Of a stretch of DNA of 64,000 nucleotides, positions 1-53,600 are shown piece after piece (position 1 is the stretch's first letter; every line of letters starts with the position of its first letter). A program made the position numbers and the translations under genes. The stretch spans positions 1 through 64,000 of the IMG/VR virus record IMGVR_UViG_3300003653_000052; one strand, written 5' to 3'. This stretch comes from a virus. The notes under the pieces are model-generated. The model saw nothing but the letters and a program-made list of their open reading frames with translations, did no database searches and was not told where the DNA came from.

Positions 1-2
1 GT

Positions 3-131
3 GGTTCCACTGATGAAGATTGTTGGTATGATGAAGAGATGTTATATGGAGAAGATGCCAAAGAAGAACTTGATTACTATGAGTATAATGCAGAATTAAT
101 AAAACGTAATAAAAATTCACTTAAATCTTAA
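3..131 (+). CDS. 3' end of a CDS cut by the window edge; hypothetical acidic protein
   Basis: Frame 3 is open from the first bases to TAA at 129-131 (..DEDCWYDEEMLYGEDAKEELDYYEYNAELIKRNKNSLKS*). It is absent from the ORF track because no start lies in the window. Confidence 0.4.
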   Translation, partial: GSTDEDCWYDEEMLYGEDAKEELDYYEYNAELIKRNKNSLKS

Positions 132-136
132 ATCAA

Positions 137-391
137 ATGAACCTATACAAATTAACTCAAGCAATTAATACTGATTATGATACATATGACTCTTGTGTAG
201 TAGCTTCTGAAAGTGAGTCTGATGCAGTGACAATTAGACCTGATAGACGTAATAATCAAGATGATTGGGAAGTGTATGAATGGGCCAGTGTTTGGGCTGA
301 TTACTCTACTGAAGTTAAATGTAAATTAATTGGTCAGGCTATTGAGGGTACTGTTAGAGGAGTTATAATATATTCTTTTAATGCAGGATAG
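137..391 (+). CDS. hypothetical early protein (84 aa)
   Basis: ORF track. It tiles with neighbouring + strand ORFs. The start sits in the shared context CTTAAATCAAATG. Confidence 0.6.
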   Translation: MNLYKLTQAINTDYDTYDSCVVASESESDAVTIRPDRRNNQDDWEVYEWASVWADYSTEVKCKLIGQAIEGTVRGVIIYSFNAG

Positions 392-442
392 TCTTTAGTA
401 GAATAACAACCAAGGCCACCACCTGATAATCAAGTAGTTACA

Positions 443-451
443 AACCCATCA
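443..451 (+). promoter_or_regulatory. early-region motif AACCCATCA (candidate phage promoter core)
   Basis: It lies 24 nt upstream of ATG 467. It is one of six copies, all on the + strand and all upstream of early ORFs. Confidence 0.45.
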
Positions 452-466
452 TTAATATTAATAACA

Positions 467-670
467 ATGACAAAAGAACTTTTTACTCCAACAGTTAGAC
501 ATACAAGTATATTTAATTCTATGTCTGATAAAGAAAAAAATGCCGCAGCTACTTGTGTTCAGTATTTAGGTTATTATGGTTGTATTCAATTTTTAATGTC
601 TATTACTGGTGGTAATAAAACAGAAAAAATGGCAAAATATATAGCCGATATTGGTCTTTATATGGTATAA
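467..670 (+). CDS. hypothetical early protein (67 aa)
   Basis: ORF track. The AACCCATCA motif lies 24 nt upstream of the ATG. Confidence 0.6.
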   Translation: MTKELFTPTVRHTSIFNSMSDKEKNAAATCVQYLGYYGCIQFLMSITGGNKTEKMAKYIADIGLYMV

Positions 671-718
671 AAGAAAAAGAATAATTTTTAATAGTTGAGA
701 GGATAAATTACTCTCTAT

Positions 719-727
719 AATCCATCA
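719..727 (+). promoter_or_regulatory. early-region motif AATCCATCA
   Basis: It lies 24 nt upstream of GTG 743 and is preceded by the hairpin at 697-715. Confidence 0.45.
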
Positions 728-742
728 TTAAATCTTAAAGCC

Positions 743-946
743 GTGAAAATAAGTAAATTAGACCCTTTAACAGGAAAGATAAACACCTTAACTCTTGACA
801 TTACTCAAGAACAGTATGATAACTGGTTCTATGGTATGTTAATACAAAAAGCAATGCCTCATTTATCTGCTGATGATAGAGAATTCTTAATAACAGGTCT
901 TATGCCTGAAAGTTTTGATAAATTACATGATATTGAAGAACCTTAA
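743..946 (+). CDS. hypothetical early protein (67 aa, GTG start)
   Basis: ORF track. The start codon at 743 is GTG. The AATCCATCA motif lies 24 nt upstream. Confidence 0.55.
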   Translation: MKISKLDPLTGKINTLTLDITQEQYDNWFYGMLIQKAMPHLSADDREFLITGLMPESFDKLHDIEEP

Positions 947-968
947 TTAATACTAAAACTTAAATCAA

Positions 969-1319
969 ATGAATATATTACACTTAATTCAATTAAAAAC
1001 GTCTATTATTGAAAGTTTAAATTTGGTTAATTATCAAATTAGAAACTATAAAGATGGTTTCAGCTATATTACTTGTTTAAGAGTATATGGTAGTATCCAA
1101 TATGATTCACATACTAATGAACAAACTGTTCAGGAATTATGTAATGAATATACTGGAGATAATGGTATTGTTGATGTTTATACAACAAATCCAGACCATT
1201 GTATTGGAACATATGATGGAGAAGTTGTTGTATTGTCTGAACAGGAATTAAAAGACTTATCTAAAGATAATGTATCAATGTCCAGAGCTATATCCAATAT
1301 GTATGCATTGATGATTTAA
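969..1319 (+). CDS. hypothetical early protein (116 aa)
   Basis: ORF track. Start context is CTTAAATCAAATG, identical to that of the ORF at 137. Confidence 0.6.
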   Translation: MNILHLIQLKTSIIESLNLVNYQIRNYKDGFSYITCLRVYGSIQYDSHTNEQTVQELCNEYTGDNGIVDVYTTNPDHCIGTYDGEVVVLSEQELKDLSKDNVSMSRAISNMYALMI

Positions 1320-1345
1320 AATAGTGAGGGCTGAAATGTCCTCTT

Positions 1346-1354
1346 AACCCATCA
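1346..1354 (+). promoter_or_regulatory. early-region motif AACCCATCA
   Basis: It lies 26 nt upstream of ATG 1372 and is preceded by the hairpin at 1326-1343. Confidence 0.45.
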
Positions 1355-1371
1355 CTAAATCAAATTATACC

Positions 1372-1620
1372 ATGACAAAACAAGAATTAAGTACCCGTAA
1401 GGCTGAAATTGAATCTATAATCAACAGCCTTCCATACATCTCAACAGTAGATAGTGATGGAGAAACAAATGAAGATAAGTACCAGGAGAAACTGGAGCAA
1501 AATGAGTATAAGGATGAATTATATCATGAGTTAGATGGTATAGATAATCTTCTTACTTCAGAAGAACAGTATCTTGAGTACCAAATGATAAATGCTCAAA
1601 GAGATGCTCAAAACAATTGA
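1372..1620 (+). CDS. hypothetical acidic early protein (82 aa)
   Basis: ORF track. The AACCCATCA motif lies 26 nt upstream. Confidence 0.6.
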   Translation: MTKQELSTRKAEIESIINSLPYISTVDSDGETNEDKYQEKLEQNEYKDELYHELDGIDNLLTSEEQYLEYQMINAQRDAQNN

Positions 1621-1649
1621 ATTAATAATGAGGGTTGAAACACTCTCTT

Positions 1650-1658
1650 AACCTATCA
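1650..1658 (+). promoter_or_regulatory. early-region motif AACCTATCA
   Basis: It lies 13 nt upstream of ATG 1663 and is preceded by the hairpin at 1630-1647. Confidence 0.45.
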
Positions 1659-1662
1659 CACA

Positions 1663-2049
1663 ATGAAACCATACATATTAATAGATAGAGTTCCTGTTCC
1701 ATCTACTTACGAGAACAGTGAATGGCAGAACTGGAACAATGATCACAACAATAAGAGAGTAGCTCTTACGGAGTTACCAAATGACATAGCAGTATCAACC
1801 GTATTTCTAGGACTTGACCACTCATTTGATTATGAAGAAGGTCATATTCCAGTATTGTTTGAAACAATGATATTTGGTGGAGAACATGACCAATATCAGG
1901 TTAGATATTCCACTTGGGATGATGCATTAAATGGTCATCAATTTGCTGTCAATTTAGCTCAAGGTGTAGATAATCCTCCATATGAAGAGAATGCAAAGTT
2001 AGATGAAGCTATTGATGACCATGAACCAGAACCTTATTCTGGAGAATAA
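1663..2049 (+). CDS. hypothetical protein (128 aa)
   Basis: ORF track. The AACCTATCA motif lies 13 nt upstream. A 12-bp stem-loop follows the stop codon. Confidence 0.65.
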   Translation: MKPYILIDRVPVPSTYENSEWQNWNNDHNNKRVALTELPNDIAVSTVFLGLDHSFDYEEGHIPVLFETMIFGGEHDQYQVRYSTWDDALNGHQFAVNLAQGVDNPPYEENAKLDEAIDDHEPEPYSGE

Positions 2050-2058
2050 AGATACAGT

Positions 2059-2088
2059 GATGCTCCGGGGTTATATCCCTGGGGCATC
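2059..2088 (+). terminator. 12-bp stem-loop after the ORF at 1663-2049
   Basis: GATGCTCCGGGG-TTATAT-CCCTGGGGCATC (two G:U pairs) is followed by TTATAGTT, a weak U-tract. Confidence 0.5.
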
Positions 2089-2745
2089 TTATAGTTAGCG
2101 TGTAGCCATACTGTTTGGTTGCGCTTTCAAATACAAACATAGTAGGCCGTAGTTTCTGGGTGTTCCTCTTAGAGGTGCTAGCACACATTGGAGACAGTGG
2201 ATAACTCTATGGGTTACTGTACACATGACTTATACCTTAGAGTCATTATTTAGTGTAAGAATAGTTGCGGTATAATAAGTGTTAAGTAAGGCGAAAATCT
2301 GAGAACATATAAAGACCTGCAAAAGATGGGAAACCAATTGAAGCAATTATTTCTTGCGCTTTATTTAAATAATCAAAAGGTTAATTACTACACCCTATCA
2401 AGGGTCTTTAATGTATAGTATAATGCTTTGTGCCTTAGCATACATTATTAATGTTATTAGGGAATACGTAAGTATTTACCACGCTGAGCTTGCTCAAATA
2501 ACAAGTAGTAGTAATTAACTGATTGGTTGTTTATTTATTAATATTTGTATCAGCTAGGCTGTGTCCATTCAATTGGTATATATGAACGAGCCAGACAGTA
2601 TGGAAGTAATGTTACTGGTTTATGGAGTATGTGTTATTTTTATAAGGATAGACTCTAAATCTAGACTATGTATTAGATACAAGCTCAATTAGGCGTTATT
2701 CCAGTCAACGTGAACCCAGAAGCACCTTTAGAAAGTGTGGAGGGT
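2089..2745 (+). ncRNA. candidate large structured RNA (ORF-free, G+C-enriched island A)
   Basis: No ORF of 60 aa or more lies on either strand. Hand counts give 43-45% G+C in lines 2101 and 2161, against about 22% in coding lines. A 13-bp long-range helix pairs 2106-2118 with 2591-2603 (one G:U, valid only on the + strand). There are many local hairpins, including a GUAA tetraloop hairpin at 2462-2477. Confidence 0.4.
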
Positions 2746-2786
2746 TTACAGACTTAAAATTAATTATTAATCTAATAACAAATCAA

Positions 2787-3026
2787 ATGACAAAACAGGA
2801 AATAAATGAATTAGCTAATACAAGCTACCATTCAGACATTGTGCCAAGAAATGAAACAGATGCTTATATATCGGCATTTAATGCAGGGTATAAAGCCGCA
2901 CAAAAAATACTTACTGAAGAACAATTAAGATTTATATACGATACAGGTGTTCATGCAAATATTGGAGAGCTTAATCATGATGTTGAATTTAAAAGAGTTA
3001 TAAATTTTATTAATAAAACAAAATGA
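2787..3026 (+). CDS. hypothetical protein (79 aa)
   Basis: ORF track. Start context is AAATCAAATG. Confidence 0.6.
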   Translation: MTKQEINELANTSYHSDIVPRNETDAYISAFNAGYKAAQKILTEEQLRFIYDTGVHANIGELNHDVEFKRVINFINKTK

Positions 3027-3211
3027 AAACTATAGCACTATTACTAACGGTGTCTACATTTACAAGTTGTATTTCTAATAAGCATTGGTCTAATAGCATT
3101 AAAAATTCAGATAACTCTGAATATGTTATAGAATGTGGATTCAATTTAGATAAACCTGTAAATAAGATAACACAAAAAGAATTTAATTTAAGATATTTAG
3201 TCATTAACTAA
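3023..3211 (+). CDS. small secreted or lipoprotein-like protein (62 aa)
   Basis: The N-terminus MKTIALLLTVSTFTSC has a signal-peptide-like hydrophobic run ending in Cys16 (lipobox-like). ATGA overlap with the upstream ORF. Confidence 0.55.
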   Translation: MKTIALLLTVSTFTSCISNKHWSNSIKNSDNSEYVIECGFNLDKPVNKITQKEFNLRYLVIN

Positions 3212-3223
3212 TAATTAGAACAA

Positions 3224-3403
3224 ATGAAAACTTATACAAAAGAAGAAGTTATTGAATTAATTAAATCTGCTATTTATAGTGATATTTATTACAGAAATAT
3301 AATAAATGATAGTAGTGATGAAAATGATCCCCATTGGGATGATATGGGAGCAATAATTGAAGAAGAAAATTTTAACAAATGGATTGAAGAAAATTTAAAA
3401 TAA
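3224..3403 (+). CDS. small hypothetical protein (59 aa), below the ORF-track cutoff
   Basis: Hand translation ATG 3224 to TAA 3401-3403 gives MKTYTKEEVIELIKSAIYSDIYYRNIINDSSDENDPHWDDMGAIIEEENFNKWIEENLK. It fills the gap between flanking ORFs. Confidence 0.45.
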   Translation: MKTYTKEEVIELIKSAIYSDIYYRNIINDSSDENDPHWDDMGAIIEEENFNKWIEENLK

Positions 3404-3411
3404 ACCTATCA
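3403..3411 (+). promoter_or_regulatory. early-region motif AACCTATCA
   Basis: It lies 57 nt upstream of ATG 3460. Confidence 0.4.
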
Positions 3412-3459
3412 CAAATTAACCTAAAGCTTAGCAGTAATAAGGAACTGCAACCAAAACCA

Positions 3460-4380
3460 ATGAAAAATTCACTATCAAACACAGGTCTAAGCTTATCACA
3501 AGCACAGTCAATCTCTAATTTATGTTACCAAAGAGGTACTGAAATCAATAACAATTTATCTGGTATTAACAATGCTACCAGAACTGTAAGGATTGGTACA
3601 GAGACCTTTGAGGAAACTGTTGGTAAACCAATGCCAACCAATGTAATAGTATTGTTATTAGAGAAATCTCAATTACATGCTACTCAAGCATTCTTAATGA
3701 CTAACATCAAAGCAAAGGATGAGATGATTAAGAGTATTCAACAGAGGGAATTCTCTTCTGATATTCAGGCTCCTGTTAGAGAACTTTTTGTTCATGCTAA
3801 TTTAAAGTCTAAAGTAGATGAAACTTGGGGTTGGTCACAACTTTCAGTTGCAGAAACTTGTGAGTTTTTAGAACAAGAAGCATTTTCTGCTCACGTGGGT
3901 CAGTTTATCCATAAAGATTCAATTCTTGATAAATTAAGAAGGCAACTTCCTAACATCAAGTCTTTGGAATGGATAACTATTAAAGATGGAGAGAAGACTC
4001 CGTTGATAATAAAGACTCATCATACCTCCGATCAACTTCTTGATTTGCATGAAGAGTTAGCTACATTACATAGAGGATATGAAATGCGGGTTAACTACTT
4101 CAAAGCCAAGGTTAAGAATTTGGTGACTGATCAAAATGCTAAAATTGCAAAAGAAAATGCAATAGAGCAGGATGAAGTCAATGGTAAAAACCTTCTTATC
4201 AATGTAGCTTACGAGAAAGCTATGAAAGAAGTTGATGGCATTGTCAGAAAACTTGTCCATGAGTTTGAAGTTATTAAAGAGCAGGATATTAGAGCTACAG
4301 CAGCTTTAAGAATATCTGTTGACCCACGGTTTCAGGAAACCGTTAATAGGTATTTAGCTAACCTAGACAAAGATGCTTAA
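3460..4380 (+). CDS. hypothetical protein (306 aa); apparently monocistronic early unit
   Basis: ORF track. The AACCTATCA motif lies 57 nt upstream and a strong intrinsic terminator follows immediately downstream. Confidence 0.75.
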   Translation: MKNSLSNTGLSLSQAQSISNLCYQRGTEINNNLSGINNATRTVRIGTETFEETVGKPMPTNVIVLLLEKSQLHATQAFLMTNIKAKDEMIKSIQQREFSSDIQAPVRELFVHANLKSKVDETWGWSQLSVAETCEFLEQEAFSAHVGQFIHKDSILDKLRRQLPNIKSLEWITIKDGEKTPLIIKTHHTSDQLLDLHEELATLHRGYEMRVNYFKAKVKNLVTDQNAKIAKENAIEQDEVNGKNLLINVAYEKAMKEVDGIVRKLVHEFEVIKEQDIRATAALRISVDPRFQETVNRYLANLDKDA

Positions 4381-4393
4381 ATAAATTGAGGGT

Positions 4394-4436
4394 ACCAGAG
4401 AAGATAGTCACAAGATGATTCTTCTCTGGTTTTATG
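4394..4436 (+). terminator. intrinsic terminator
   Basis: ACCAGAGAAGA..TCTTCTCTGGT forms an 11-bp stem followed by TTT. Confidence 0.75.
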
Positions 4437-4516
4437 CTTAATAATAGAGTCTTAACTAAAATAAATAACTTTCATTTGGATATGAAAAATCAGGTTCTTC
4501 ATGAACCAAAAAACCG

Positions 4517-4690
4517 CTTTCTCTACAAATTATTAAAACTTTTGTGTTGGGCCTTGAGCACCAATGTAGTACAGTTAATCTATCCTAAAAGATAGAACTG
4601 GACATACACATACTTTTAGTATGATACACACAACAAGATTTAGTTATTGTCATTGCCTTTGAAGTAGAGAAAGGTCTTTGTTTTTGATTT
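4517..4690 (+). ncRNA. candidate small structured RNA (island B)
   Basis: A perfect 10-bp closing helix pairs CTTTCTCTAC (4517-4526) with GTAGAGAAAG (4664-4673). It encloses the hairpins CTATC-CTAAAA-GATAG and CATAC-TTTTA-GTATG. A T-rich tract (GTCTTTGTTTTTGATTTT) follows. Confidence 0.35.
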
Positions 4691-4744
4691 TAGTTTTATT
4701 TTTATCTATATACTTTATTATTAAGTGACCTTAATTTTATTATT

Positions 4745-4753
4745 AACCCATCA
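4745..4753 (+). promoter_or_regulatory. early-region motif AACCCATCA
   Basis: It lies 24 nt upstream of ATG 4769. Confidence 0.45.
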
Positions 4754-4768
4754 TTAAAACATATTCTT

Positions 4769-5194
4769 ATGGAAACTAAAACATGTACTAAATGTAATGA
4801 AGAAAAATTTATATTAGCTTTTCGTTCTTGGGGTGATAAAAGATGGCCAAATCATATTAATATTGATAAAGATTGTAAATCTTGTCGTTATTTAGAACAT
4901 AGACTTTGGATAAAGAATAATTCTGATAAATATTATCAAAGTGCAATAACAAACTATAATAAATATAAAAATCGTTATATACAATATCGGAAAAAATATA
5001 AAGAAAAATATCGTAATAAAAATAAAGAACTATTAAATGATCAATATATTATATATTTATTATTAAGTAATTCAACATTAATAGTAAAAGATATTTCATT
5101 AGAATTAATTGCACTTAAAAGAAAAGAATTATTAACCAAACAAAAAATCAAAAATTATGAAAAAGAAAGTATTAACTCCAAAGAAAATTGTTAA
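4769..5194 (+). CDS. Zn-ribbon (CxxC..CxxC) basic protein, possibly nucleic-acid binding
   Basis: CTKC at the N-terminus and CKSC about 30 aa later. The C-terminal half is K/R/Y/N-rich. The AACCCATCA motif lies 24 nt upstream. Confidence 0.6.
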   Translation: METKTCTKCNEEKFILAFRSWGDKRWPNHINIDKDCKSCRYLEHRLWIKNNSDKYYQSAITNYNKYKNRYIQYRKKYKEKYRNKNKELLNDQYIIYLLLSNSTLIVKDISLELIALKRKELLTKQKIKNYEKESINSKENC

Positions 5195-5681: not shown

Positions 5682-5942
5682 ATGAGCTATTATATAGACA
5701 AAGACTCTAAAGGAGTAACATTACCTTCAATGAATAAATTTAATCATTTGATTAAAGATGGAGCAATTGAAGTAAAAGCAGGTTTTCAAGATAATCTATT
5801 ATGTATTATAATTAATCCAACTGTTGGAGATGTTGTAGTATATGTACGTGATAAAGATGAATATAAAGATATTGTGGATATGATTATTCACTATAAAATA
5901 TGGTTAATTCATCCTGAACTTATAAAATCATTATCTTTGTAA
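5682..5942 (+). CDS. hypothetical protein (86 aa)
   Basis: ORF track. Confidence 0.6.
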   Translation: MSYYIDKDSKGVTLPSMNKFNHLIKDGAIEVKAGFQDNLLCIIINPTVGDVVVYVRDKDEYKDIVDMIIHYKIWLIHPELIKSLSL

Positions 5943-5949
5943 ATAATAT

Positions 5950-6335
5950 GGGGCCAACGGGTAAGCACCTTAAGTCTAATTAATAATAAGCAAGTAGAGC
6001 ATTGTCTATTAATGTGAGCTCTTTAAAACTAGTAGATACAAGAATAATTGGCAACAATGATTCAAGCCTTGGACTCGTTCAAGATGTTAAATTTGCAATG
6101 TCTCACAATTTACTCTCTGGAGTATATGTAGGCAATCCAGTTGGAGAACTGGAGCTTGTATAACATAGCAAAACCTCAAAAAACTATCTCTGAGTTATCT
6201 GAGTGCAAAGGTTTGTTAAAACCTTAAAAGATCAAAATAAATTAAATATTCTGTTTGTAGAAGATAATACATTCAAACTTGTAGAAATTTGTTAATTAAC
6301 TTAGGGCAACGAGGGTTCAACTCCCTCTGGCTCCA
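5950..6335 (+). ncRNA. ssrA: tmRNA-like gene (transfer-messenger RNA), about 386 nt
   Basis: The 5' end GGGGCCA (5950-5956) pairs with TGGCTCC (6328-6334) as a 7-bp acceptor stem with G3:U70. The T arm is GAGGG-TTCAACT-CCCTC (6311-6327) and the discriminator is A6335. A long bulged P2 helix forms between GCACCTTAAGTCTAATTAA (5965-5983) and TTAATTAACTTAGGGC (6292-6307). An H-type pseudoknot pairs 5996-6000 with 6018-6022 and 6002-6008 with 6033-6041. It ends 8 nt before an open 37-codon frame (6050-6160, stop 6161-6163). Length and topology match bacterial tmRNA. Confidence 0.78.
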
Positions 6336-6339
6336 CTAA

Positions 6340-6362
6340 ATAACTGATAATTAATCAGTTAT
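6340..6362 (+). terminator. 9-bp hairpin immediately 3' of the tmRNA-like gene
   Basis: ATAACTGAT-AATTA-ATCAGTTAT. There is no U-tract, so it may be a processing or termination signal. Confidence 0.4.
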
Positions 6363-6850
6363 AACAATATTAGTAGATATGGATGAGTGAAATACATACC
6401 GAAAGGATAGTATTCAAAATCCTAAGTTTACTAATCTTATTAACCAGCCAGTTAGGTTAAGATGTGTAATTCATCTCTACAAATATATCCCGTAAGATAT
6501 GTTAGTAGCTGTTATAGACAGCATCATTATAATATAATCCAACGGAGGAATATACACTAATAGGATTGACTCCTAAATAGAAGGACACTCAAAAGGGATA
6601 AAGATAGCCAAAGTCTTAGAAAGGTCTTTATATTATAATTCTTACTATTATTCCCTACAATACCGGTTCCAAGAGAGGAGGATACACATGACGTGTTCTT
6701 GGAAAGCTGATTCCTCATACCAAAATCCAGGACTTCTAAAGAGTTCTATCTTATATGATATCTATGAGTAAAGTTTTGATAGCACTCAGCACTTAAGGCT
6801 GGGTGGAAAAACCACGGATTATATTTTTAACATATAAAATAAATAAACAA
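6363..6850 (+). ncRNA. candidate structured RNA or long structured leader (island C2, downstream of the tmRNA)
   Basis: The region is ORF-free. An 8-bp stem pairs 6667-6674 with 6697-6704 and has an inner ACAC/GTGT hairpin. GAGGA (6675-6679) is complementary to TCCTC (6712-6716), giving pseudoknot potential. An 8-bp hairpin lies at 6783-6805, with further 5-bp hairpins elsewhere. Confidence 0.3.
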
Positions 6851-7389: not shown

Positions 7390-7680
7390 GTGTTGTATCA
7401 ACTTTCTACAGGAAAAACTATAAATATTTCATTGGAACAGTTTCTTGATCTTACAGATGAAGATGAACAATATTTAGTAAGCCTTAATTATGGTGATACC
7501 ATTTTATCTCCTTTTTTTAAATCCTCACTTAGTAATACAACAGAAAGACCTGAAAGAGAAGATGATTCAATAGATTATATTGAAGATTTAGAAGAACTTT
7601 CAGAAGTACAACAAAGAACGTTATCTCTTGATGAAGAACCAGTAGAAATTCCAAACCCAGAAGATTTAGAATTAGAATAG
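7390..7680 (+). CDS. hypothetical acidic protein (96 aa, GTG start)
   Basis: ORF track. An 11-bp perfect hairpin lies downstream. Confidence 0.5.
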   Translation: MLYQLSTGKTINISLEQFLDLTDEDEQYLVSLNYGDTILSPFFKSSLSNTTERPEREDDSIDYIEDLEELSEVQQRTLSLDEEPVEIPNPEDLELE

Positions 7681-7714
7681 TCATAGTGTATTCCGGATAC
7701 ATTATTTTTAGATA

Positions 7715-7746
7715 ATACATGATAAAAAGGACTACTTATCATGTAT
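7715..7746 (+). terminator. 11-bp perfect hairpin after the ORF at 7390-7680
   Basis: ATACATGATAA-(10 nt)-TTATCATGTAT is followed by GTTTACTTT. Confidence 0.55.
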
Positions 7747-7799
7747 GTTTACTTTAGTAGTCTATCAAATCAAATTAATAACCAATAACCAAAAACAAA

Positions 7800-8285
7800 A
7801 TGGAAGATTTAACCAAAGTAACAGTATCTGCGGATGCTGTAGGAAATGTCATTGTCCAATCTATAAGTAATCCTGAATTTGGATACATTAGAGTTAGTCA
7901 AGACAGAACAATTTTTGATGATAATGGATTTATGTCTAAAAAACCAGTTAGTGCCTTAATTCATGGTACTGTATCTGATTTACAGTCATTAAATTGGAAA
8001 AAAGGTCAAGAATTAACAGGTAAAGTTGTAATTAAACAGTCTTTAGTAGCATTTAACAAGAAAAAGCCTGAAATTGATTACAAAGTTGCTGGTAAGACAG
8101 GAATTATATGTACAATAGGAGGATCTCCTATTTACTATAAAACAAACTATTCATCAAATGCGAATGTTGAAGATAGTTTACCTATTAAACATGATAATAC
8201 AGAAGCAATTATAGCAAAACTTGCTGAATTAAAAGTGTTAGAAGCAATTACAAGTAATTCTTCAACTGCTGATTTTACATTATAA
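7800..8285 (+). CDS. hypothetical protein (161 aa)
   Basis: ORF track. An A-rich AACCAATAACC leader lies upstream and an intrinsic terminator downstream. Confidence 0.7.
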   Translation: MEDLTKVTVSADAVGNVIVQSISNPEFGYIRVSQDRTIFDDNGFMSKKPVSALIHGTVSDLQSLNWKKGQELTGKVVIKQSLVAFNKKKPEIDYKVAGKTGIICTIGGSPIYYKTNYSSNANVEDSLPIKHDNTEAIIAKLAELKVLEAITSNSSTADFTL

Positions 8286-8342: not shown

Positions 8343-8882
8343 ATGGAAAAAAGTATTAACTTAGTATATAGCACACGGAATAGTTTGTTATATAAAGGAA
8401 AACTAAACAATTATCAATTAGAGGGTAATAAGTTTAATGATAAAAAGGTATCTAAAATTGAACAAGGACCGTATAACGAATATCAAAATCTATTATATAA
8501 TAGAGTGTTGTATGGATTATCAGTATTTTCTAAAGAAGAATTACAAGTAATGCATTGGGAAAAGAAAAAACGTATAACTAAAGTTAATCTTAGAACTAAA
8601 GCAATATTAAATATTTGGAAACAAGAAATTACTAATAAACTCTTTGATAAATTCTTTAAACCTAAATTCATAAATTCAAAAAGTGAATTTGGTAAAGAGT
8701 TTATAAACCTATATTCTAATGAAACGGATTCTGAAATAGAAATTAAGATTCCTTTTAAAACATTAGGTATATTTAAAAAAGACATCATCACAAAACTAAT
8801 TGTAGAAAGTTTATTACCAAAGAATTTTTATGAACTAAAACCCGTATATTATGGCTTACCCAGACTTCTCATTAAGAGTTAA
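8343..8882 (+). CDS. hypothetical basic protein (179 aa)
   Basis: ORF track. Confidence 0.65.
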   Translation: MEKSINLVYSTRNSLLYKGKLNNYQLEGNKFNDKKVSKIEQGPYNEYQNLLYNRVLYGLSVFSKEELQVMHWEKKKRITKVNLRTKAILNIWKQEITNKLFDKFFKPKFINSKSEFGKEFINLYSNETDSEIEIKIPFKTLGIFKKDIITKLIVESLLPKNFYELKPVYYGLPRLLIKS

Positions 8883-9027
8883 AAAATTTGGTGTTACTAT
8901 AGATTATAATTTATTAGGAAAAGTACTACTTGCAAAACAAGAGTTAATAAATTTTCCTATAATTAAAGATCCTACACAATACCGTGAAAGAAAATTATCA
9001 ATTATTAATACTATTTATCCTGATTGA
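8851..9027 (+). CDS. small hypothetical protein (58 aa), below the track cutoff
   Basis: Hand translation from ATG 8851 gives MAYPDFSLRVKKFGVTIDYNLLGKVLLAKQELINFPIIKDPTQYRERKLSIINTIYPD, with TGA at 9025-9027. It overlaps the upstream ORF by 32 nt. Confidence 0.35.
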   Translation: MAYPDFSLRVKKFGVTIDYNLLGKVLLAKQELINFPIIKDPTQYRERKLSIINTIYPD

Positions 9028-13697: not shown

Positions 13698-13966
13698 CAG
13701 CTTTATTACTTCCAGATGCTGGAGGTTCTACTAAAAAAATCAAATTTATTACTCAAGATTCTAAAGAACATTTATCAGTTGATATTTATTTATGTGATGA
13801 GAATTGGAAAGAAATGGGTAAACCAACAGAAGGTACTCATATTGATAATGAAGAAACTTATCATAGAATTCTTAGAGAAGAGGCTTCAAAACGAGATCAT
13901 TATGTATTAGAACATTCTACGAATCCTGAGTGGAACCCTGGACATGTTGCAGAAGAAGACAGATAA
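13688..13966 (+). CDS. hypothetical protein (92 aa)
   Basis: ORF track. Confidence 0.55.
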   Translation: MPVTALLLPDAGGSTKKIKFITQDSKEHLSVDIYLCDENWKEMGKPTEGTHIDNEETYHRILREEASKRDHYVLEHSTNPEWNPGHVAEEDR

Positions 13967-14028
13967 AAAATGTCCAATCAAATGGAGGTAAGAGCAACAG
14001 TATGATATAGTTTATACTGCCTCTTTAG

Positions 14029-14123
14029 GGGTAAGTGAGGGAATTGGCTAAACCTTATACCAGCACTGGTTAGTGGCAAACGAAAATAAGTCCATCTTAT
14101 AGGTTCAAATCCTATCTTATTCA
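14029..14123 (+). tRNA. tRNA-like gene or tRNA mimic, 95 nt, G3:U70 acceptor, anticodon domain not foldable by hand
   Basis: The acceptor GGGTAAG/CTTATTC forms 7 bp, with G2:U71 and G3:U70. T8-G9 follow. The D arm is AGGG-AATTGGCTAAA-CCTT. The T arm is ATAGG-TTCAAAT-CCTAT (14099-14115) and the discriminator is A14123. The 42 nt between the D and T arms gave no 5-bp/7-nt anticodon hairpin. Confidence 0.5.
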
Positions 14124-14478
14124 CAATAACAGACGTTGTCGTGTTATAATCTTATATTTTGTATAAAAAGTGAAGCTCATACTAATTAGAGTTTTTTAAT
14201 AGAGATGTTAATGAGTTTATACATTATATAAGTTGTTATGGAGTTAGAGGTTCCCATCTTATACATACCCTGTTAGTGGTGTATGTTTAAAGGATGTACA
14301 TATTTTATTTTTATTATTTTCTTTATTTTCTATCCTTCTAGAAAGGTTTAAAACACGTCCTTAGGAGCTGAGGGTATTCTTATCTGTTGCAATCAGATGT
14401 GAAACAAGAGTTAGATTATAAATCTAAGACCCCTACTAAAAATAAGAAAAAATGACTTCCAGGAATAGACTGGAATTT
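14124..14478 (+). ncRNA. ORF-free spacer between the two tRNA-like genes with several hairpins; possible RNA
   Basis: Hairpins include ATCTG-TTGCAAT-CAGAT (7-nt loop containing GCA), TTAGAT-TATAA-ATCTAA and ACATACC..GGTGTATGT. No canonical tRNA could be assembled. Confidence 0.25.
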
Positions 14479-14569
14479 GACAAGGTAACTCAGTTGGTTA
14501 GAGTATCTGATATTTGATCTAAAAGGACACTTAATCTTAAAGTCAGTGGTTCGAGTCCACTCCTTGTCA
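14479..14569 (+). tRNA. tRNA gene with canonical acceptor, D and T arms but an aberrant 40-nt anticodon/variable region (identity undetermined)
   Basis: The acceptor GACAAGG/CCTTGTC is a perfect 7 bp, followed by TA. The D arm is ACTC-AGTTGGTTA-GAGT. The T arm is AGTGG-TTCGAGT-CCACT and the discriminator is A. The middle region is about 17 nt longer than in a type-I tRNA. The best candidate stem, TCTGA/TCTAA, has 2 mismatches around loop TATTTGA. Confidence 0.7.
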
Positions 14570-14592
14570 CAAACTAAAATTTAAATAAAAAT

Positions 14593-44604: not shown

Positions 44605-47600
44605 TTAACATTTAAAAGGGTCATTACTATTTTCTAAAGTAGCTAGAGTTTTCTTATATACATCTCTAATTGCTTGTTTACCTATTTCAGTGGTATTACT
44701 ACTAGTACCTATACCAGCAAAGTTTTTAGTAAGAATAGGTGTATCTATTTTAATAAAATCATTTTCTTTCCATGTATACCAGCCTATATCATATTTATTT
44801 TTTATTTGATTAAATACATAAACAGGTTTATTTTCATTTATAGCCATTTGAACAGCACCACTAGTACCTCCATTAACTTGAGGTATTAATGCTATTTTAG
44901 TTACAGAACCTCCACTTAATGTTATGTTATCTCCTTTTGCAACTAAACTACCTATTGCAAATATAGCATCTGCATTTTTAACTTGAGCCCAATTTCTTAT
45001 TTTTTTACTATTTCTTGTTGTATGAGTAGGTTCTATTCGTCCCATTTGTCTTTCAGCAAGTGTTATTTTAAGTTGACCTTCTCCTACTTTGTTAGTAGAA
45101 GGTTTACCATTTCTATCTACACTACCTTCAGCAGCAGTTGCTACAGGTCCAACATCTTTTGTAGCATCTATGGGAGTTACTCCTTTATTTTGTAATCTTT
45201 TATCTGATACTGCTCCATCAGAAGGTAATAAATAATGTTTATGATTTATAAACTCAAAATCATTACCTATTAAATCCCATTCTGCATCATATCCTTGTGC
45301 TCCTCCTGAATGATTTATATAATCTTTTATATTATTAATTGTTGCGGTAGATACAGATTGTTCATCTATTTTTAAAAAAGCATCATTAAGAGCTTTGATA
45401 AACCAATTTTTACCTCCTGTTTCCCAAACAGTATTTTGTTTAGTTGGTTGATGAGTAGATGATAATATCCAAGCAGATCCTCCTACTTTATTTATTTCTT
45501 CAACAAGTCTAGGATGTTGTTTTAATTTTTCTTTAATAATTTGAACCATTAAATTATAAGTATTATTAGGCCCATCATCTTTAGTAGCTGTATTTTTAAG
45601 AGCTTGATAAGCAGCTTCAGCATCTTTATAAAATTTACTTTTAAAATCAACAGGATATGAATTTGATATATTACCTTTTGATTTAGCTAATTCAGTTGGA
45701 TTAGTAAGTGCTGCTCCTAATCCTTTAGCATTACTTGATATTTCAATACCATTAATTACTGTTGTTAGAACTGATGTGGTTTTACTTCTATTATTAATCA
45801 TTTCAAGTAATACATCAGCATGAGAAAAATAAGGATATGGTTTATAATAAAGTAATGTTTTACCATCTAAATTTCCAGAATTAATCTCTTTTAATATCCA
45901 ATTTCTTCTTTCTTGTTGAATATCTTGATGAGCAGTACCATTTAACCAATTTCTATAAGCTTCTGTAGCTTCTTTTACAGTAGGTACAATAATTAATCCG
46001 TCAACTAATCTACTAATAACTTTCCCATCTACTACTTTATCTTTTGGTGTACTCCATTGATTACCAAAATAATGAAACTCAGTTGCTTTAGTTAATTTCA
46101 TAATTCCTGCAGGTCTCATTGTCCAAATACCCTTAGCTGCAAAATAAGCTTCTTTAGCTGCTGCATAAGTTGAATAATTAATGACTTTAGCTGCAGGTGT
46201 AGGTACGATAGTAAGTTGAGGTTGTACTTCAAATACTGTATTTCCTTTTACTTTTTTAATTTCAGCATACATTTTATCACCAAATACAACATTTATTGGA
46301 ATTAATCTTCCTCCAAATGCATTGGCTAATTCATTTAAGCTATTTTTGTTTAAATTAGTATCTGAGTTATAGGGTATTATAAATCTTTTGTTTGGGTTAG
46401 CTCTAGCAACGGTATAAAGTTCTTGTATATTAGTTCCAAGTTCTACATAATTTAAAGGTTGTCCTGGTTTTTCAACAGTAATTAGTCCATATCCAGTACC
46501 TTTAGTTCCAACCATTAACCCAGTCTTTCCAGCTATTGCAAAATCACCTACTTTATTGTCAACTACATCTTTACTTAAATTTAGATTCCAGTTTCTATAA
46601 TTATCAGTAGTATTAGCATAAGCTAATGCTGCCATTCCTTGACCATGAAAACCTGCTCTATTTGCACCAAATACCATGACATCATTTTTACCAAACATAT
46701 CTTGAGATAAGTTTCCTGTAAAAGCAACTTTATTGTTAACAGTAGAAACAGGTTCAACATTCTTTTTAGTTAATTTAATATTATCTAATGTTTCAGTTCC
46801 CATAACTTTTCTTAATGTTAATACTGTTCTATAATTATCAGTTTTAACCATTTTATCAGCATGGCCTAATCCTGTAAATGCTTTATTAACAGTTAGTGTT
46901 GGAAATCCTTGAGGCATTGGTAAATCATTAGTTTCTTTATCAAAAACTATTTCATGCATTACATTTCTATTGTTTCCTGAAAATATAAGTATAGCTCCAT
47001 TATTTAAAATATATTCTGATTTAACAGTTCCTTTAAATGATTTAGGTAAAACATCTTTTACATAATCTATAATTTTTGTATCTCCTGTTTTTTCAGCATA
47101 TTTTAAAATATTAGAAGGTGTTATTTGTCCATAAGTAATTTTCTCTTTTAGGTTTTTAGTAACTAAATTTAAAGCAATTCTATATGGAGTTACATTACTA
47201 TCTGTTAAATTAAATTCATTACTGTCTTGTAATTCATAAGTAATAAATTTCATAGGTCTTCCTAATGAAATAGTAATAATTGGAGATTTATTAGTTTCTG
47301 TATTATCTTGATGTATTATTAAACTTCCATTATCTTCTTTATCATATACAGAGTTATAACTTGCTTCATATTCTGAAGCATCAATACCTTTAGTTGCTAA
47401 TAATTGAATGATATTTGAAGGTATATTTGGTAGTATTTTTCCATTTCTATCAATATTAGTATAGCCATATAAAGGAAATCCTCCAATTTGATTCATAGAT
47501 TCTCCTTTAACCCATCTATCTTTCATAGCTTGAGTAATAGATTTACCATTTAATTGTTTACCTACTACAAATCCTTTTTTAGTTTCAATAGACATTGTAT

Positions 47601-50600
47601 CATTTAATCTTACCCATCTGTGCCCAAAATCCCAAGATATTGAACCTTTAGTTTGTTTGTAAGAAGTTTCAGCAATTAAACCTTTAAAGCTATTTACTAA
47701 ATCAATACTTGTTTTTAAATCTATAGCATTTTCAATTATAATTAATCCATCTTCATTTTTAATAATCTTTTCATTAAGCATAGGTTGAGATGTAACAAGT
47801 GTAGTAACTTGTTTAATCATTTGTAAACCTGTTTTAAGATCTACATTAGAAATATATACTTCTCCTGATTCTAAATCTATTAAATCATATGTATCAGTAA
47901 GATTTAATATCCATTTAGCTGATTGAGGAGCTTTCTCACGTTTACTTGTTTGAGGATTATAGAATTCTTTAAATGTTGTTTTAGAAGTGAAAAACTCTTT
48001 AGGTAATTTACCTTCAGATTTAGTTAAATAACTTTTAAAAGCAGCAAGATCTTCAGAATTAATTATTTTTATTGTAATAATAGATTCTGGTAATATATAA
48101 TCAGGGTTTACAAATCCAAATTCTTTAAGTAATCTTTTATTTAAATGTTCTAAAACAAGTTTATCAGTAATATTATGACCATATCCTTTTTCATCAAATA
48201 TTAATGCAATACCTGATATTAAATCAAACACCATATTTTTAACACTTTCATCAATATCATTAATAGAATCTACTTTTATTTTAAAACCAGTATCTAAAAA
48301 ATCATCACCACTAGTAATGAAACGTGCTTTACCTAAATATATATCTGATATTATTTGTTTTTCATTTTCTGCAATATTTACTGTATTGAGAGTATAAATT
48401 CCTTCAATTGCAGTAGGGGTTATTCTATCAAATTCTTTATCACTAGTTATTATGTTTTCTCTAATAATCTCTTCTCCAGCCTTTTTAAGCTCTAAAACAT
48501 CTGTAGTAGAAAGATAGTTAATACCATTAATTCTTTGATTTAATTTTTTATTAGCTACAAGATTGTTTCTTAAAAATAAATTAAAAACAACCTCTAATAT
48601 ATCTTTATTCAAATTATGAGTTATTTTTTCAATAGCATCATTCATTATTAATGATTGAGCAGAACCTACAGGAAATATACTTGGATATGCAAATTGATGT
48701 TTATTCATACCACCTTGTAGAAAAGCATAAATAGAAAACTTTCTAAATAATTCAGATAATCTTTCATTATCTTCTCTGGCTTCTAAAGTATCTCCCATTA
48801 TTTTTTTAACAGAAGAATCAGATAATTTAGCAAGATCATCTGCATATTGTTCAGTGCTCTCTGGAGTTAAATCTCCTGAATCTTTTAAAGTAATATTTAC
48901 AAGACCTGATGCAAACTTATTTTTATTATTTGTATCATTTAAAGTATCTGAATAATAACTTGGTTGTAATTGTTGTATTATACCATATTTTGCTGAAAGA
49001 TTGTGTTTTTCTGAAAGATTATATTTATTAATAAGTGACATTAAAGTAGTAGCATAAGATGCAATACCAGACTGTTGATTATTAAAAAACATTGTTTTAA
49101 TATTATAAGAATTTTCTAAAGCTCTAGTTTTTAGATAATCTTCATAAATTAGTTCAGGAGTTCTTCCATCTTTTTTTTCTAATTTACTTGTAAAATAATA
49201 TGTTTTAGTAAACTCCTCCATAGGAGTAAGTGATCTTAATAATTCACGTTCTATAACAAAATCATAATAAGCTTTAGCACCTGCTAATTTACTTGTATAA
49301 TTATTAGGTAAATAAAATACATCTGAGGTAAGTGTTGATAATCCTTTTTTACGGTAAGATGTATCTCCAATAGCACTTAAAGTATAATCATTGTTTTTAA
49401 ATTCTTTTCTTAATATATTTTCATTAATATAAATAGCATCTGATTTAACTTCAACAGCATTTTTTCCCGTAGTAATATAAATTACAGGAGTACCCTTATA
49501 CATTTTGGATTTTCCTATTGAAAATGATTTAAGATTATTTACAAATAAATAATTCATTAAAGCATTTTTAAATCTTTTTGGAAAAGAATCTTTATCAAAT
49601 CCTGTTCTATCTCTAATAGTATTAATTTTTTTATAATCATTTAGAGTATCATAAATAAATTCATTTAAAAGATTATTATTTCTTAATGTAAACAATCTAC
49701 TGAATAAATCTTGTGCAAGTTCTGTTACTTTAAAAGCACGTATAGCACTTTCGTCAGTGATATACTTTATAATCTTAACCGGCATTTTAGTACTTGCAGT
49801 TACTTCATCAAGTCTTAATTGTCTAGAAAATACATCAAATAAATCCCCAGATTTAGTAGTATCAAAACTTGTTACTTTTCTTGGTTCATCAAAATTTGTA
49901 GCTAATTCTTCAATATATAAATAATGTAAAAAACCATTAATAGCATCTTTATCTTTAATACTATCTGAAAGTTTAGATTTAGCTATCTTTTCTAATTCTT
50001 TTGTAGTAAATATTCTATCTCCATGTTCTTTATTTAAATTTTCAGCAATAGCCACAGTGTCTCTCATATCCATAATGGTACCTGCTTTTTTAACCATTTC
50101 ATATATAGAGGTTCTTGCATTGGCTTTGGCAAATTCAGGACTACTATCTTGTTTCTTTAATCTATTTAACAATCCTTTATTAATCTTCATATTTTTAATA
50201 TATGCTCTTATTATAGGATTATTTACATAATAAATGACATCTTTTATAGGTACTCCTGATTCTAATAAAAATAAGATAATAGGAGTTACCTCTTTATTAC
50301 CTTGTATAAAAGCAATCCAAGCATCTTTTTCAGAATCTACATAACCATTCATTAATTGAGAAATGATTTCTGAAATTTCATGTTCATTATTTGAGTCATA
50401 TAAATTTGATAGAGATATTACTTTACGTTCTATACCATTTTCATCTAATATGATTATTCTATTGTGTTTTAATAATAATTTTGTAGGAACATTAATTATA
50501 ACATCTGTTTTCTTTTGAACACCTTCTTCATCTGGTACCATTCTTTTACTTATAAAAGGTACTTCAAAAGGTATATAAGCTCCAGCACTATTATAAACAA

Positions 50601-53600
50601 TATTACCTTTATTACCCAAAGCCGCAATACCTAATGCTTCTTTACTAACAAAGTTATCTGTGTGTTTCTTAAGATTAAACCCATATTCAAGATTACGTGT
50701 AGGACTTACTCCTTTTAAAGTAGGAGTTCCGTTTTTTCTTTTTGAAGACTTATAATCATAATCCTGAACATGTTTTTCCATATCATATGCTATGGGCTTA
50801 GTTTTATGAGTATCATTAGGAGTTAATAATCTTATGGCATTTTCAGGTAATTCAAGAATACTGATTATATCATTAATCAATGAGTTTTCTATAGCTTTGA
50901 TGAAGTTTCTTCTATGATCTTTTAATGCTGCATATTCTTTATTTAATTTTTTAAGTTCAGGATAATCTTTTAAATAATCTTTTTTTTCATCGTGTTTTTC
51001 ATTTAATGCTGTCTCAATTTCACTAAGTATTTTTGAATTTTCTTTAATATTATTAAATGCTGTAAGCATATCTCCTTTAGATAACATAGTAGGAACAGTT
51101 TTAAAATCATTAATGATTTTTACTATTTCTTTATTATCCCTAGAAGTCATAATTACATTTAACCCAGCATAAACTTTACTTACAGCGTTTTTATTTACAA
51201 TAAATGATTGTATATCACTTATATCTTGAGATAATACATCTTTTATATTAGTTTTTTGTATACCTAATGCTACAATTATCTTTCCCTTATCTGCTTTTTC
51301 TGAATAAAAACTATTTATTAAATCTTTAACTTTATCTCCTACAATACCTTCTTTAGTTAGTATTTTAGTTATTTTACTTTCTATTAGTTTTATTTCATTA
51401 TTTAATTCTTCTCTTGTTGCATATTTATCTGAAAACCATTCTCCTGTTTTACTAATTGTAGGCATATAAGTAGTTAACTTATCTACGTCAAAGTCAGTAC
51501 CAGATTTGGCTACAATTTCAGCAGGTAAGATTATAATATTACCTGCAATTGTGGGTAGAAATTCAGCTATTATAGCAAATTCCATAGAATTATGACCTTG
51601 AACAGGAATACGTACACCAGTTAATCTTAATTTTTTTCTATTATCTCCAATATTTAACCATTCTTCATCTCTAATTAATTGATTGAGTCTAGCTAAACTT
51701 CTATCAGTATTAAGAACATCTATAGTTTTTTTAGGATCTTTAGGATCTATAATTGTATCATATTGAGCAATTTCAATACCTTTAGTATCAAGAAGATTAT
51801 AAAGATTTAAAAAACTTCCTTGCATTGCAATTTTTACTTGACATCCAATTGTGACCTTAATACCATCAATGTCAGCAGTATAAAAATCTAAATCTCCATC
51901 ACCATATTTTTCTAATTCAGCATCAATGTTCTTAAACTTTAATGTACTGGATACAGAAACTTCAACTAAAGGTTCACCATTAACTAGTTGTTTAAGAATT
52001 TTGTTATTAAGAACAGCCATTAATTTCTGTTCAAATTTATCAGCAATAGGAGAACCACTAAGATCTCTCATTAATCCCCCTTGTCCATTATTCTCAATAT
52101 ATTCTAATTCATGTTTTGTTAACCCTTGTTTTTCTAATTCGTCATGTACAAACTGAATTAAACTACTTAAATTATCTTCAGGACCTTCATAATGTCCTGT
52201 TTTAGCATTCCAACTCCATCCAGTAATACTTGTTATTAAATCATGTTTTTTTATCTGAATTAATTTAGAAACTCTATCTTCATATGTTCTTACTAATTTA
52301 AAGAAAGGAGAGATGGCCATTTGTTCAGCTTCTGTTAATGCTTCCCAAGCAAGTGTTCTTTTTACACCAGATATATCTTTTGTTATAAAATCAATTGGAA
52401 TACCATTTTCAATTAATCCAGCAGATAATAAAGTACGTAATTGAGTAGACATAGCGGCATGTCCTTTAAACTCACTATTAATTTCTGTTTGATTTTTTAA
52501 ATAATCAACATAAATTGTATTTTTTGTTAATTGAACATTTGGTTTCATTTTACCAGTTTGTTCATCAAATACATCATCTGCTATTTGTTTATTATTATTT
52601 GTTATAGAAGATAATTTAGAACCAGATGAGTATGTAGCATATTGTACACTCTGTTTCATCATAGTTTCATGTAATTCTTCTAAAGGAGTTCCTTCTATTA
52701 CAGAAGGAATTAATGGAAATAATGCAAATTTATGACCAGATGTTATTGGTAATAACCCGAGTGCTGTTTTAAGATTACCTGCATATTGTAATTTATAAAC
52801 CGGAAAGAATTCAACTATATCTTCTGTTAAGATGGGTTCTTTTCTTACAATTTTTTGATAAATTCTTTCTTGATGATCACTCCAAGATCCTTCTAAGTCT
52901 TTTAATCTTCTATAAGCATCTAATGAAATATAACCTTGACCATCTGTTACAGTAGGATTTTCATAAGGATCCATCATTAAGTCTAATTCTGTAGATAACT
53001 CATTATCTTTTTTACCCTTTTTTATAAGATGTTTTTTAAAAAGTTCTCTTAACTTTTTATTTACATGAGCTCTTGGTGTTTTATAATCTTTAATAATAGC
53101 TGTATTAAAAGTGCCATTAAACAAATCATCAATACCTGTAAGTTGTTTTGTAAGTGCTGTTCCTAATATATTAGCATTATCTCTAGCTGCCCGATCTGTT
53201 GGAAACATAATACCACTTGATTGAAATAAAGAATATCTTTTAGTAGCTTCATCTTTAAAATGGTCATAAGTATGTAATTCACCATTATGTAATAAAGTGA
53301 TTTCATAATTATTTATCCAACTATTATAAGTAAAGGAAGCTAATGCAGCATTATTTAATCTTTCTACATATGCTGGTTCTTTCAATAATGATATATCTCC
53401 TTTTATTGATTTTACAATATTTTCACGTATTCCTGGAGCTGTATAACCATATTGAGATATTAAAACTTCTTTATATTCATTATTTAAAGTAGTAAAATAA
53501 TGTTTTAGTTCTGTTTTAATTTTTCCTAATAATACTTCACCTTTTGTAGTACTATTAAGTAAATCTAATAAAGTTTTATTTTTATTAGCATTATATTTGT

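Follow-up and report, generated by a model that had tools for sequence, protein, structure and literature searches.

The locus described here raises the question of what an otherwise densely coded phage genome carries in a long stretch that lies between two small early genes and contains no apparent gene of its own. The window, that is, the whole 64,000-nt stretch of DNA that was analyzed (positions 1 to 64,000 of IMG/VR record IMGVR_UViG_3300003653_000052), has seven gaps of at least 200 nt, two of which hold a tmRNA and a tRNA. Amongst these, the 737-nt gap at positions 2050-2786, here called island A, is exceptional. It is flanked on the + strand by a 128-aa ORF upstream (1663-2049) and a 79-aa ORF downstream (2787-3026). 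The statement in an initial annotation of this DNA that the region has no ORF of at least 60 aa on either strand holds across the whole gap, where the longest ORF has 59 aa, lies on the - strand and extends into the end of the 128-aa gene. We tentatively favor the reading that island A is a lineage-specific large structured RNA, belonging to no known family and produced from the early + strand transcript, and we give this reading a little less than even weight.

Island A is non-coding. Each of its six frames contains 13 to 25 stop codons of at least two, and mostly all three, kinds, so that no single codon reassignment opens any frame. A codon-usage score trained on the 22 long ORFs of the phage placed the small ORFs of island A between -0.57 and +0.06 bits per codon, as is seen for spurious ORFs (mean -0.43, sd 0.41), and the nine flanking small genes between +0.15 and +0.80. 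Recoded or tiny genes were ruled out by this stop-codon pattern and these codon scores. The stop-free stretches of all six frames gave no tblastn match in 855 kb of translated relatives and none in Pfam, and a decayed gene was rejected on this basis. The 59-aa ORF, compared with 1.84 billion representative proteins, matched repetitive giant proteins only. It is very improbable that the region is instead a cluster of protein genes shorter than 60 aa, for example at 2326-2418, 2411-2518 and 2561-2692. Although the neighboring real genes are themselves small (59-128 aa) and the first two of these ORFs overlap by 8 nt, which is compatible with translational coupling, the three score -0.36, +0.06 and -0.31 bits per codon, below every flanking gene. 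Additionally, none of them is preceded by the motif found before early genes (described below), the A content is unlike that of coding sequence, and no gene is called at island A in the near-identical contig L071.

Island A has a G+C and base-skew signature. Its overall G+C content is 35%, compared with a window mean of 27.3%, and its A content is 32-33%, compared with 38-41% in coding sequence. The G+C enrichment reported in the initial annotation proved to be correct for the 5' ~250 nt, which is the richest part of the 64 kb, and did not extend to the rest. Values of 44-47% were found over positions ~2050-2250 only (the 5' 200-250 nt of the gap), and the highest value in the 64 kb, which exceeds the mean by 4.5 sd, lies at 2051-2200, where a G+C-rich 12-bp hairpin (2059-2088) forms part of the peak. 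The remainder of island A is at 31-33%, no higher than the neighboring early genes (31-39%).

A long non-coding stretch close to the start of the early region could also be a DNA-level element such as a replication origin, a packaging site or a recombination site. This is highly unlikely for island A, which is not AT-rich, contains no iterons and no tandem or substantial direct repeats, and does not coincide with a turning point in cumulative GC skew; moreover, a DNA element does not predict the strand-specific fold described next.

The predicted fold of positions 2100-2610, a segment that leaves out the terminator-like hairpin, has an energy of -144.1 kcal/mol on the + strand (z -4.68), with none of 100 shuffled sequences folding as well, and this was the lowest energy amongst the same-sized windows tested. 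The z-score of the - strand was -1.24. For the whole gap the corresponding values were -209 kcal/mol and z -4.3 on the + strand versus -147 kcal/mol and z -0.5 on the - strand. The z-scores of this genome are negative in general, with sense-strand background windows of 511 nt having a mean of -1.3 (sd 1.5); the strongest of these, at -4.94, lies in the downstream 306-aa gene, and four others, including the window of the tmRNA, reach about -4.2. The fold of island A therefore stands at roughly the 2nd to 3rd percentile of the genome background, in its tail and not outside it, and since a coding window of the same genome reaches about -4.9, this signal is suggestive and not decisive.

Measures of how well the fold is defined pointed in the same direction, although they are correlated with the z-scores and not independent of them. 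Mean positional entropy was 0.64 in island A compared with 1.14 +/- 0.24 in the background, with a lower value in only one of 56 windows (rank 2nd of 57). The fraction of bases paired at P > 0.9 was 0.35, which ranked 1st of 57 and above the tmRNA window, and the - strand was background-like in these ensemble measures. Local 200-nt windows inside island A were unremarkable, which indicates that the fold signal comes from long-range organization. The initial label of a candidate large structured RNA is thus a fair one as regards a non-coding region with a strand-specific, stable and well-defined fold, with the reservation that its z-score falls within the tail of the background.

The minimum-energy, centroid and maximum-expected-accuracy structures agree for island A and include five helices of 7-24 bp with pair probabilities of at least 0.93. 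The long-range helix proposed in the initial annotation is amongst the predicted features. CCATACTGTTTGG (2106-2118) is complementary to CCAGACAGTATGG (2591-2603), with T2115:G2594 as the single T:G wobble, which is a legal pair only in an RNA of the + strand and becomes an A:C mismatch on the - strand, as had been noted. The rarity attributed to this 13-bp match was less well founded, with 8% of dinucleotide shuffles containing a match as good (at most one G:U pair). In its full form the helix has 15 contiguous pairs, including two G:U pairs, at 2106-2120 / 2589-2603 (P = 0.02 against shuffles). The 13-bp helix with one G:U pair is thus not significant by itself (P = 0.08), and the 15-pair form is modestly so. 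In the predicted + strand structure this helix is extended to P1, whose 5' strand at 2106-2123 holds the 13-mer and forms 17 pairs with 2587-2603 at a mean probability of 0.95. The hairpin at 2059-2088 resembles a terminator belonging to the upstream gene, so the candidate RNA would start at about 2092-2106.

Inside P1, a second long-range + strand helix, P2, is predicted between 2131-2137 and 2544-2550, and the two enclose several subdomains on the same strand. Domain A (2139-2220) is a predicted three-way junction with a 13-bp closing helix, the outer helix having a probability of 0.96. This domain, in which the CCUC-UUA-GAGG hairpin and a GAGA-capped hairpin are found, coincides with the G+C maximum of the window and forms the G+C-rich core. 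It is followed by a 7-bp hairpin, AUGACUU / GAGUCAU (2225-2246, pair probability 0.96), and by domain B (2252-2360), in which a 17-bp helix with a pair probability of 0.93 surrounds a branched interior and a GAAA-capped hairpin. Domain C (2366-2533), which contains the inverted repeat I1, is a 24-bp interrupted helix with pair probabilities of 0.98-1.00 that closes three hairpins, including GAAUAC-GUAA-GUAUUU. The fold is closed at 2544-2603, where the 3' strand of P2 (2544-2550) is separated from that of P1 (2587-2603) by two small hairpins; the inverted repeats I3 and I9 agree with this part of the fold. A 3' extension on the same strand (2618-2754) comprises a long hairpin at 2618-2694 (probabilities 0.5-0.76) and a stable hairpin at 2703-2754 (0.95-1.0), with 33 nt between its end and the ATG of the 79-aa gene. 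The segment 2604-2786 on its own has a z-score of -1.95, and the modeled extension may be part of the candidate RNA or a leader of the downstream genes.

The smaller elements listed in the initial annotation were all found where it had placed them, namely the hairpins CCTC-TTA-GAGG, GTGCTAGCAC, GACT..AGTC, ATGCT-9-AGCAT, GAATAC-GTAA-GTATTT and CTGAT..ATCAG, and the two copies of the 9-mer TTGCGCTTT at 2119 and 2354. Hairpins capped by GNRA loops are not enriched in island A, where two were found (P = 0.11).

Searches for known RNA families agreed with the earlier failure to recognize one in this region. Rfam 15, with 4227 models that include group I/II introns, RNase P, 6S, SRP, OLE, HEARO, raiA and self-cleaving ribozymes, gave no match at the gathering threshold in 2050-2786. 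With permissive filters and E <= 10, the best matches within 1900-2950 reached 17.7-18.7 bits (E ~1-3). One of these, RAGATH-12 at 2717-2790, was discarded as chance level (17.7 bits against a cut-off of 75, E ~1). ARAGORN found nothing within island A. The suggestion that the region could be a new member of ROOL or GOLLD was not supported, as both covariance models were run and neither gave a match even at E <= 10. GOLLD membership (RF02032) was rejected both at the gathering threshold and at E <= 10 with a model that scores 306 bits in a related phage, and ROOL membership (RF03087) was likewise rejected for lack of a covariance-model match. The Rfam model of GOLLD covers the universally conserved 3' domain of this RNA and leaves its 5' half uncovered.

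The initial annotation had proposed a collection of homologous regions from related phages and metagenomes; this was carried out and returned one near-identical copy and no diverged relative in the collections searched. The only other copy of island A is on L071, a 4.9-kb JGI contig that is 99.6% identical overall to positions 1-4831 of the window. All 20 differences lie outside 1810-4831, and island A is identical in both, so that L071 is uninformative on island A. As a separate observation, most of the 20 differences fall into two clusters, 13 in 1607-1809 and five in 793-835, a mosaic divergence that suggests recent recombination between co-existing strains.

No homologue of island A was found in 1.9 Mb of fetched loci, IMG/VR, JGI metagenomes, GTDB genomes or GenBank phages. 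This includes blastn against GenBank phages, which gave no DNA match, and blastn and nhmmer against sets of 74, then 87 and then 24 fetched loci, which gave no relative. Two single-sequence covariance models were also built, R1 on 2139-2246 (domain A) and R2 on domain C. R2 scored 200.8 bits on the + strand versus 28 bits on the - strand, and over 1.05 Mb both models matched themselves only. Exact-word scans with the G+C-rich core gave no match in IMG/VR and two chance matches in GTDB genomes, and the early-gene motif, used as bait in IMG/VR, returned 87 single-copy chance matches, none of them from the lineage of island A. Motifs common to island A and other ORF-free gaps were limited to chance-level 10-mers.

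The neighboring genes were followed as an additional route to relatives. The 79-aa neighbor is an ORFan, with no relative in IMG/VR, JGI metagenomes or a set of 5.8 billion proteins, and no relative of the 116-aa neighbor was found in IMG/VR. For the 128-aa gene, the best match is a 118-aa gene on L188 (64% aa identity), a contig whose motifs, the early one included, assign it to the same lineage; it ends 118 nt past the gene, and those 118 nt are unlike island A. The 306-aa protein has 2420 homologues, of which the nearest is 62% identical, and island A was absent, by blastn, nhmmer and the R1 and R2 models, from 38 loci of the clade taken from IMG/VR, Logan and JGI metagenomes. The same protein has no match amongst GenBank phages and none in Pfam, PDB or PHROG. 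The DNA polymerase is at most 34% identical to those of GenBank phages, and the phage has no cultured relative.

The link drawn in the initial annotation to large phage-associated RNAs held up insofar as GOLLD, Hatchet and tmRNA genes were found in this neighborhood in related phages. In the relative L061, GOLLD was identified at 8528-8942 (306 bits). Hatchet ribozymes scoring about 81 bits lie directly upstream of the 306-aa gene in four other relatives (L063 712-848, L064 5493-5629, L067 5561-5697 and L178 7561-7697). A permuted tmRNA (L068 2819-2970), a tmRNA (L073 11661-12035) and a group I intron (L061 7274-7461) were also detected, together with arrays of up to ~25 tRNAs near the 306-aa gene. 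All of these lie within a few kb of this conserved gene. The window itself carries a phage tmRNA (RF00023) on the + strand at 5950-6338, 3.2 kb downstream of island A, which was missed by ARAGORN and gave a full-length match of 59.7 bits. This neighborhood is thus a hot spot in which non-coding RNAs with no relation to each other take each other's place. A non-coding orphan region that lies here and folds well, as island A does, therefore has a higher prior of being an RNA gene. As a positive control, we examined positions 8100-8527 of L061, the segment that immediately precedes the GOLLD match and should hold the 5' half of GOLLD. This region had z-scores of -5.75 on the + strand and -1.28 on the - strand and a G+C content of 0.38 compared with a locus mean of 0.33, which is the same strand-specific fold and G+C signature as in island A.

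The orphan status of island A also bears on another explanation, in which the region is a non-functional spacer that folds well by chance and is left over from DNA that was deleted, has decayed or was recently acquired from a foreign source. A complete orphan in all collections searched, next to a 79-aa gene that is an ORFan amongst 5.8 billion proteins and thereby suggests a young, fast-turning-over segment, speaks for this explanation, and the high G+C content at one end fits a foreign origin. Coding windows of the same genome that reach z -4.9 add to this. Against it, no protein remnant was found in any frame and no donor of the G+C-rich 18-mer was found in GTDB. Junk DNA in a genome of 27% G+C should drift towards AT, but island A holds the G+C maximum. 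Its fold is strand-specific, with the lowest energy and the most high-probability pairs and only one background window of lower entropy, and long non-coding stretches are otherwise rare in this genome. We regard such a spacer as rather unlikely, with the orphan status, the ORFan neighbor and the generally negative z-scores of the genome keeping this explanation alive.

The transcription context provides some information about how an RNA could be produced from island A. Between 1 and 39 kb, every gene lies on the + strand. A recurring early-gene motif, consisting of a short GAGGG...CTCTC hairpin followed by TAACCCATCAYTAAA, lies a few to ~15 nt before start codons, with five strong + strand copies at 442-456, 718-732, 1345-1359, 1649-1663 and 4744-4758. 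Within the window the motif occurs in the first 5 kb only, and it is conserved in the nearest relatives (L072, L073 and L188); this marks it as a regulatory signal specific to the lineage, which probably acts as an early promoter or as a terminator-promoter unit. The copy at 1649-1663 would then likely be the start signal of the unit that contains island A. The likely end of this unit is a strong + strand terminator after the 306-aa gene (4394-4434), read from the sequence as an 11-bp stem, ACCAGAGAAGA / TCTTCTCTGGT, followed by TTTT; the gap that holds it (4381-4768) has a z-score of -7.6. The apparent order within the unit is the 128-aa gene, the hairpin at 2059-2088, island A and then the 79-, 62-, 59- and 306-aa genes. 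This G+C-rich 12-bp hairpin, on the + strand just after the stop codon of the 128-aa gene, is terminator-like with a poor T-tract, TTATAGTT, and accounts for the z-score of -4.8 of window 1901-2100. Its role may be that of a leaky terminator, of a processing site or of a stabilizing stem.

No promoter-like or terminator-like signal of its own was found for island A. In the promoter scan sigma-70-like sites were at chance level, and no Bacteroidota -7 box was found near island A on the + strand. If island A gives rise to a free RNA, this would have to be processed from a read-through transcript. The tmRNA at 5950, in contrast, has a Bacteroidota-type -7 box, TATCTTTG (TAnnTTTG), 11 nt upstream at 5932-5939.

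An element that lies inside one apparent transcription unit, with no promoter-like motif between 1649 and 4744, no terminator after it and a last stable hairpin ending 33 nt before the next ATG, could instead act in cis as a structured leader or intercistronic element that controls the stability, processing or translation of the 79-, 62-, 59- and 306-aa genes, and not as a free RNA. We consider this distinctly unlikely. With ~700 nt, island A greatly exceeds in length the known leaders of bacteria and phages and the known RNase III processing sites. Elsewhere in the early region the intergenic spacers measure ~10 to ~75 nt, and no riboswitch or leader family matches island A. The RNase III sites of T7, for example, are single hairpins of ~50-60 nt in phage early mRNAs. 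Island A resembles them in its position between early genes of one unit and in its stable sense-strand hairpins, but it differs in having a predicted multi-domain fold of 500-700 nt with a long-range closing helix.

Under the favored reading of a large structured RNA, island A would be transcribed on the + strand together with the early genes, starting at the promoter-like motif (~1649) and running towards the terminator (~4394-4434), with read-through past a leaky hairpin at 2059-2088. The transcript would fold into a domain of ~500 nt (2106-2603), in which the 17-bp long-range helix closes a junction of subdomains A, B and C, and a hairpin-rich extension of ~180 nt would follow. The structured RNA could then be cut out of the early transcript or could function within it, and it would be functionally analogous, not homologous, to GOLLD, ROOL and the ribozymes of related phages. 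Transcription, processing and any function are inferred in this scheme. The structured-RNA reading is weakened by the lack of any diverged homologue in the collections searched, the unlike tail of L188, the lack of a promoter or terminator of its own and the lack of GNRA enrichment. It is further weakened by the negative z-scores found genome-wide and by the raised G+C content, which could also reflect foreign DNA.

Amongst large phage RNAs, ROOL is roughly 500-600 nt long with pseudoknots as a typical feature, and GOLLD and ROOL form RNA-only nanocages. By analogy, island A might be a self-assembling RNA-only particle like these two, or it might be an early-expressed decoy against host functions. 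The Hatchet (RF02678) and tmRNA (RF00023) RNAs share its neighborhood, but neither model matches island A, whose length is four to five times that of Hatchet. GOLLD is a large, highly base-paired phage non-coding RNA of several hundred nt whose function is unknown, and ROOL is phage-associated and multi-domain with no known protein partner (PMC12286853). Island A is similar to both in its size, phage location, lack of a partner gene and predicted multi-domain fold (PMC12286853). In L061, GOLLD lies ~1.6 kb downstream of the same conserved 306-aa gene, whereas island A lies upstream of this gene, has no sequence similarity to the L061 region and has no tRNA array beside it, and its structure is predicted from a single sequence. 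Island A also differs from ROOL in being away from any tRNA island. GOLLD is found in phages or prophages, often next to tRNA genes; island A likewise lies in a phage, and the tRNA-like genes closest to it, the tmRNA at 5950 and a tRNA-Lys at 14479, are not adjacent.

It is possible, though on the doubtful side, that island A represents a class of phage structured RNA (~500-700 nt) not described before, and that it arose in the GOLLD/Hatchet/tmRNA hot spot. If real, it would add to the very short list of large structured phage RNAs (GOLLD, ROOL), and one neighborhood in a widespread uncultured phage clade would be seen to swap unrelated non-coding RNAs between lineages. The swapped set would consist of GOLLD, Hatchet, tmRNA, tRNA arrays and island A, and further RNA classes could then profitably be sought in this hot spot. 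Being a singleton, island A is of immediate value as a candidate for in vitro probing or cryo-EM.

Several other features of the window and its relatives were recorded. Within the 306-aa gene, the + strand coding window 3751-4261 folds at -140 kcal/mol (z -4.9), and the 200-nt window 4001-4200 also has a z-score of -4.9; judging from these predictions, a structured element may be embedded in the gene at 3751-4261. Just downstream of this gene, a non-coding block of ~110 nt (4623-4741, in gap 4381-4768) is 73-83% identical at the nt level in nine relatives, although protein identity in these is only 50-60%. Amongst its many invariant bases are TTGCCTTTG, AAAGGTCTTTG and CTATATAC, and AGAAAGGTCTTT recurs at 6618. 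The block is conserved with no consensus fold (alifold -4 kcal/mol) and therefore looks like a regulatory DNA element.

Two further ORF-free gaps, 6339-6802 (~460 nt) and 13967-14478 (~510 nt), fold moderately well on the + strand (z-scores of about -2.5) and hold G+C peaks that are amongst the highest of the window, of 39% (6651-6800) and 41% (13926-14075), respectively; neither has an Rfam match or a homologue in relatives. A tRNA-like T-arm, GGTTCAAATCC, called by no tool, lies near 14103 in the second of these gaps. In the relative L060, a 533-nt ORF-free gap (7551-8083) with no Rfam match has z-scores of -5.0 and -6.2 on its two strands. The tRNA-Lys(UUU) at 14479-14570 (+) is 92 nt long, with an insertion of ~20-30 nt in the anticodon region that is possibly an intron, and similarly long tRNA matches occur in relatives (L062 3315-3442 and L170 1694-1817). 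On the - strand, opposite the replication genes, lie an ORF of 1075 aa, whose protein has no PHROG or Pfam match, and two adjacent giant ORFs at 44605-58272 (4555 aa) and 58274-63964 (1896 aa).
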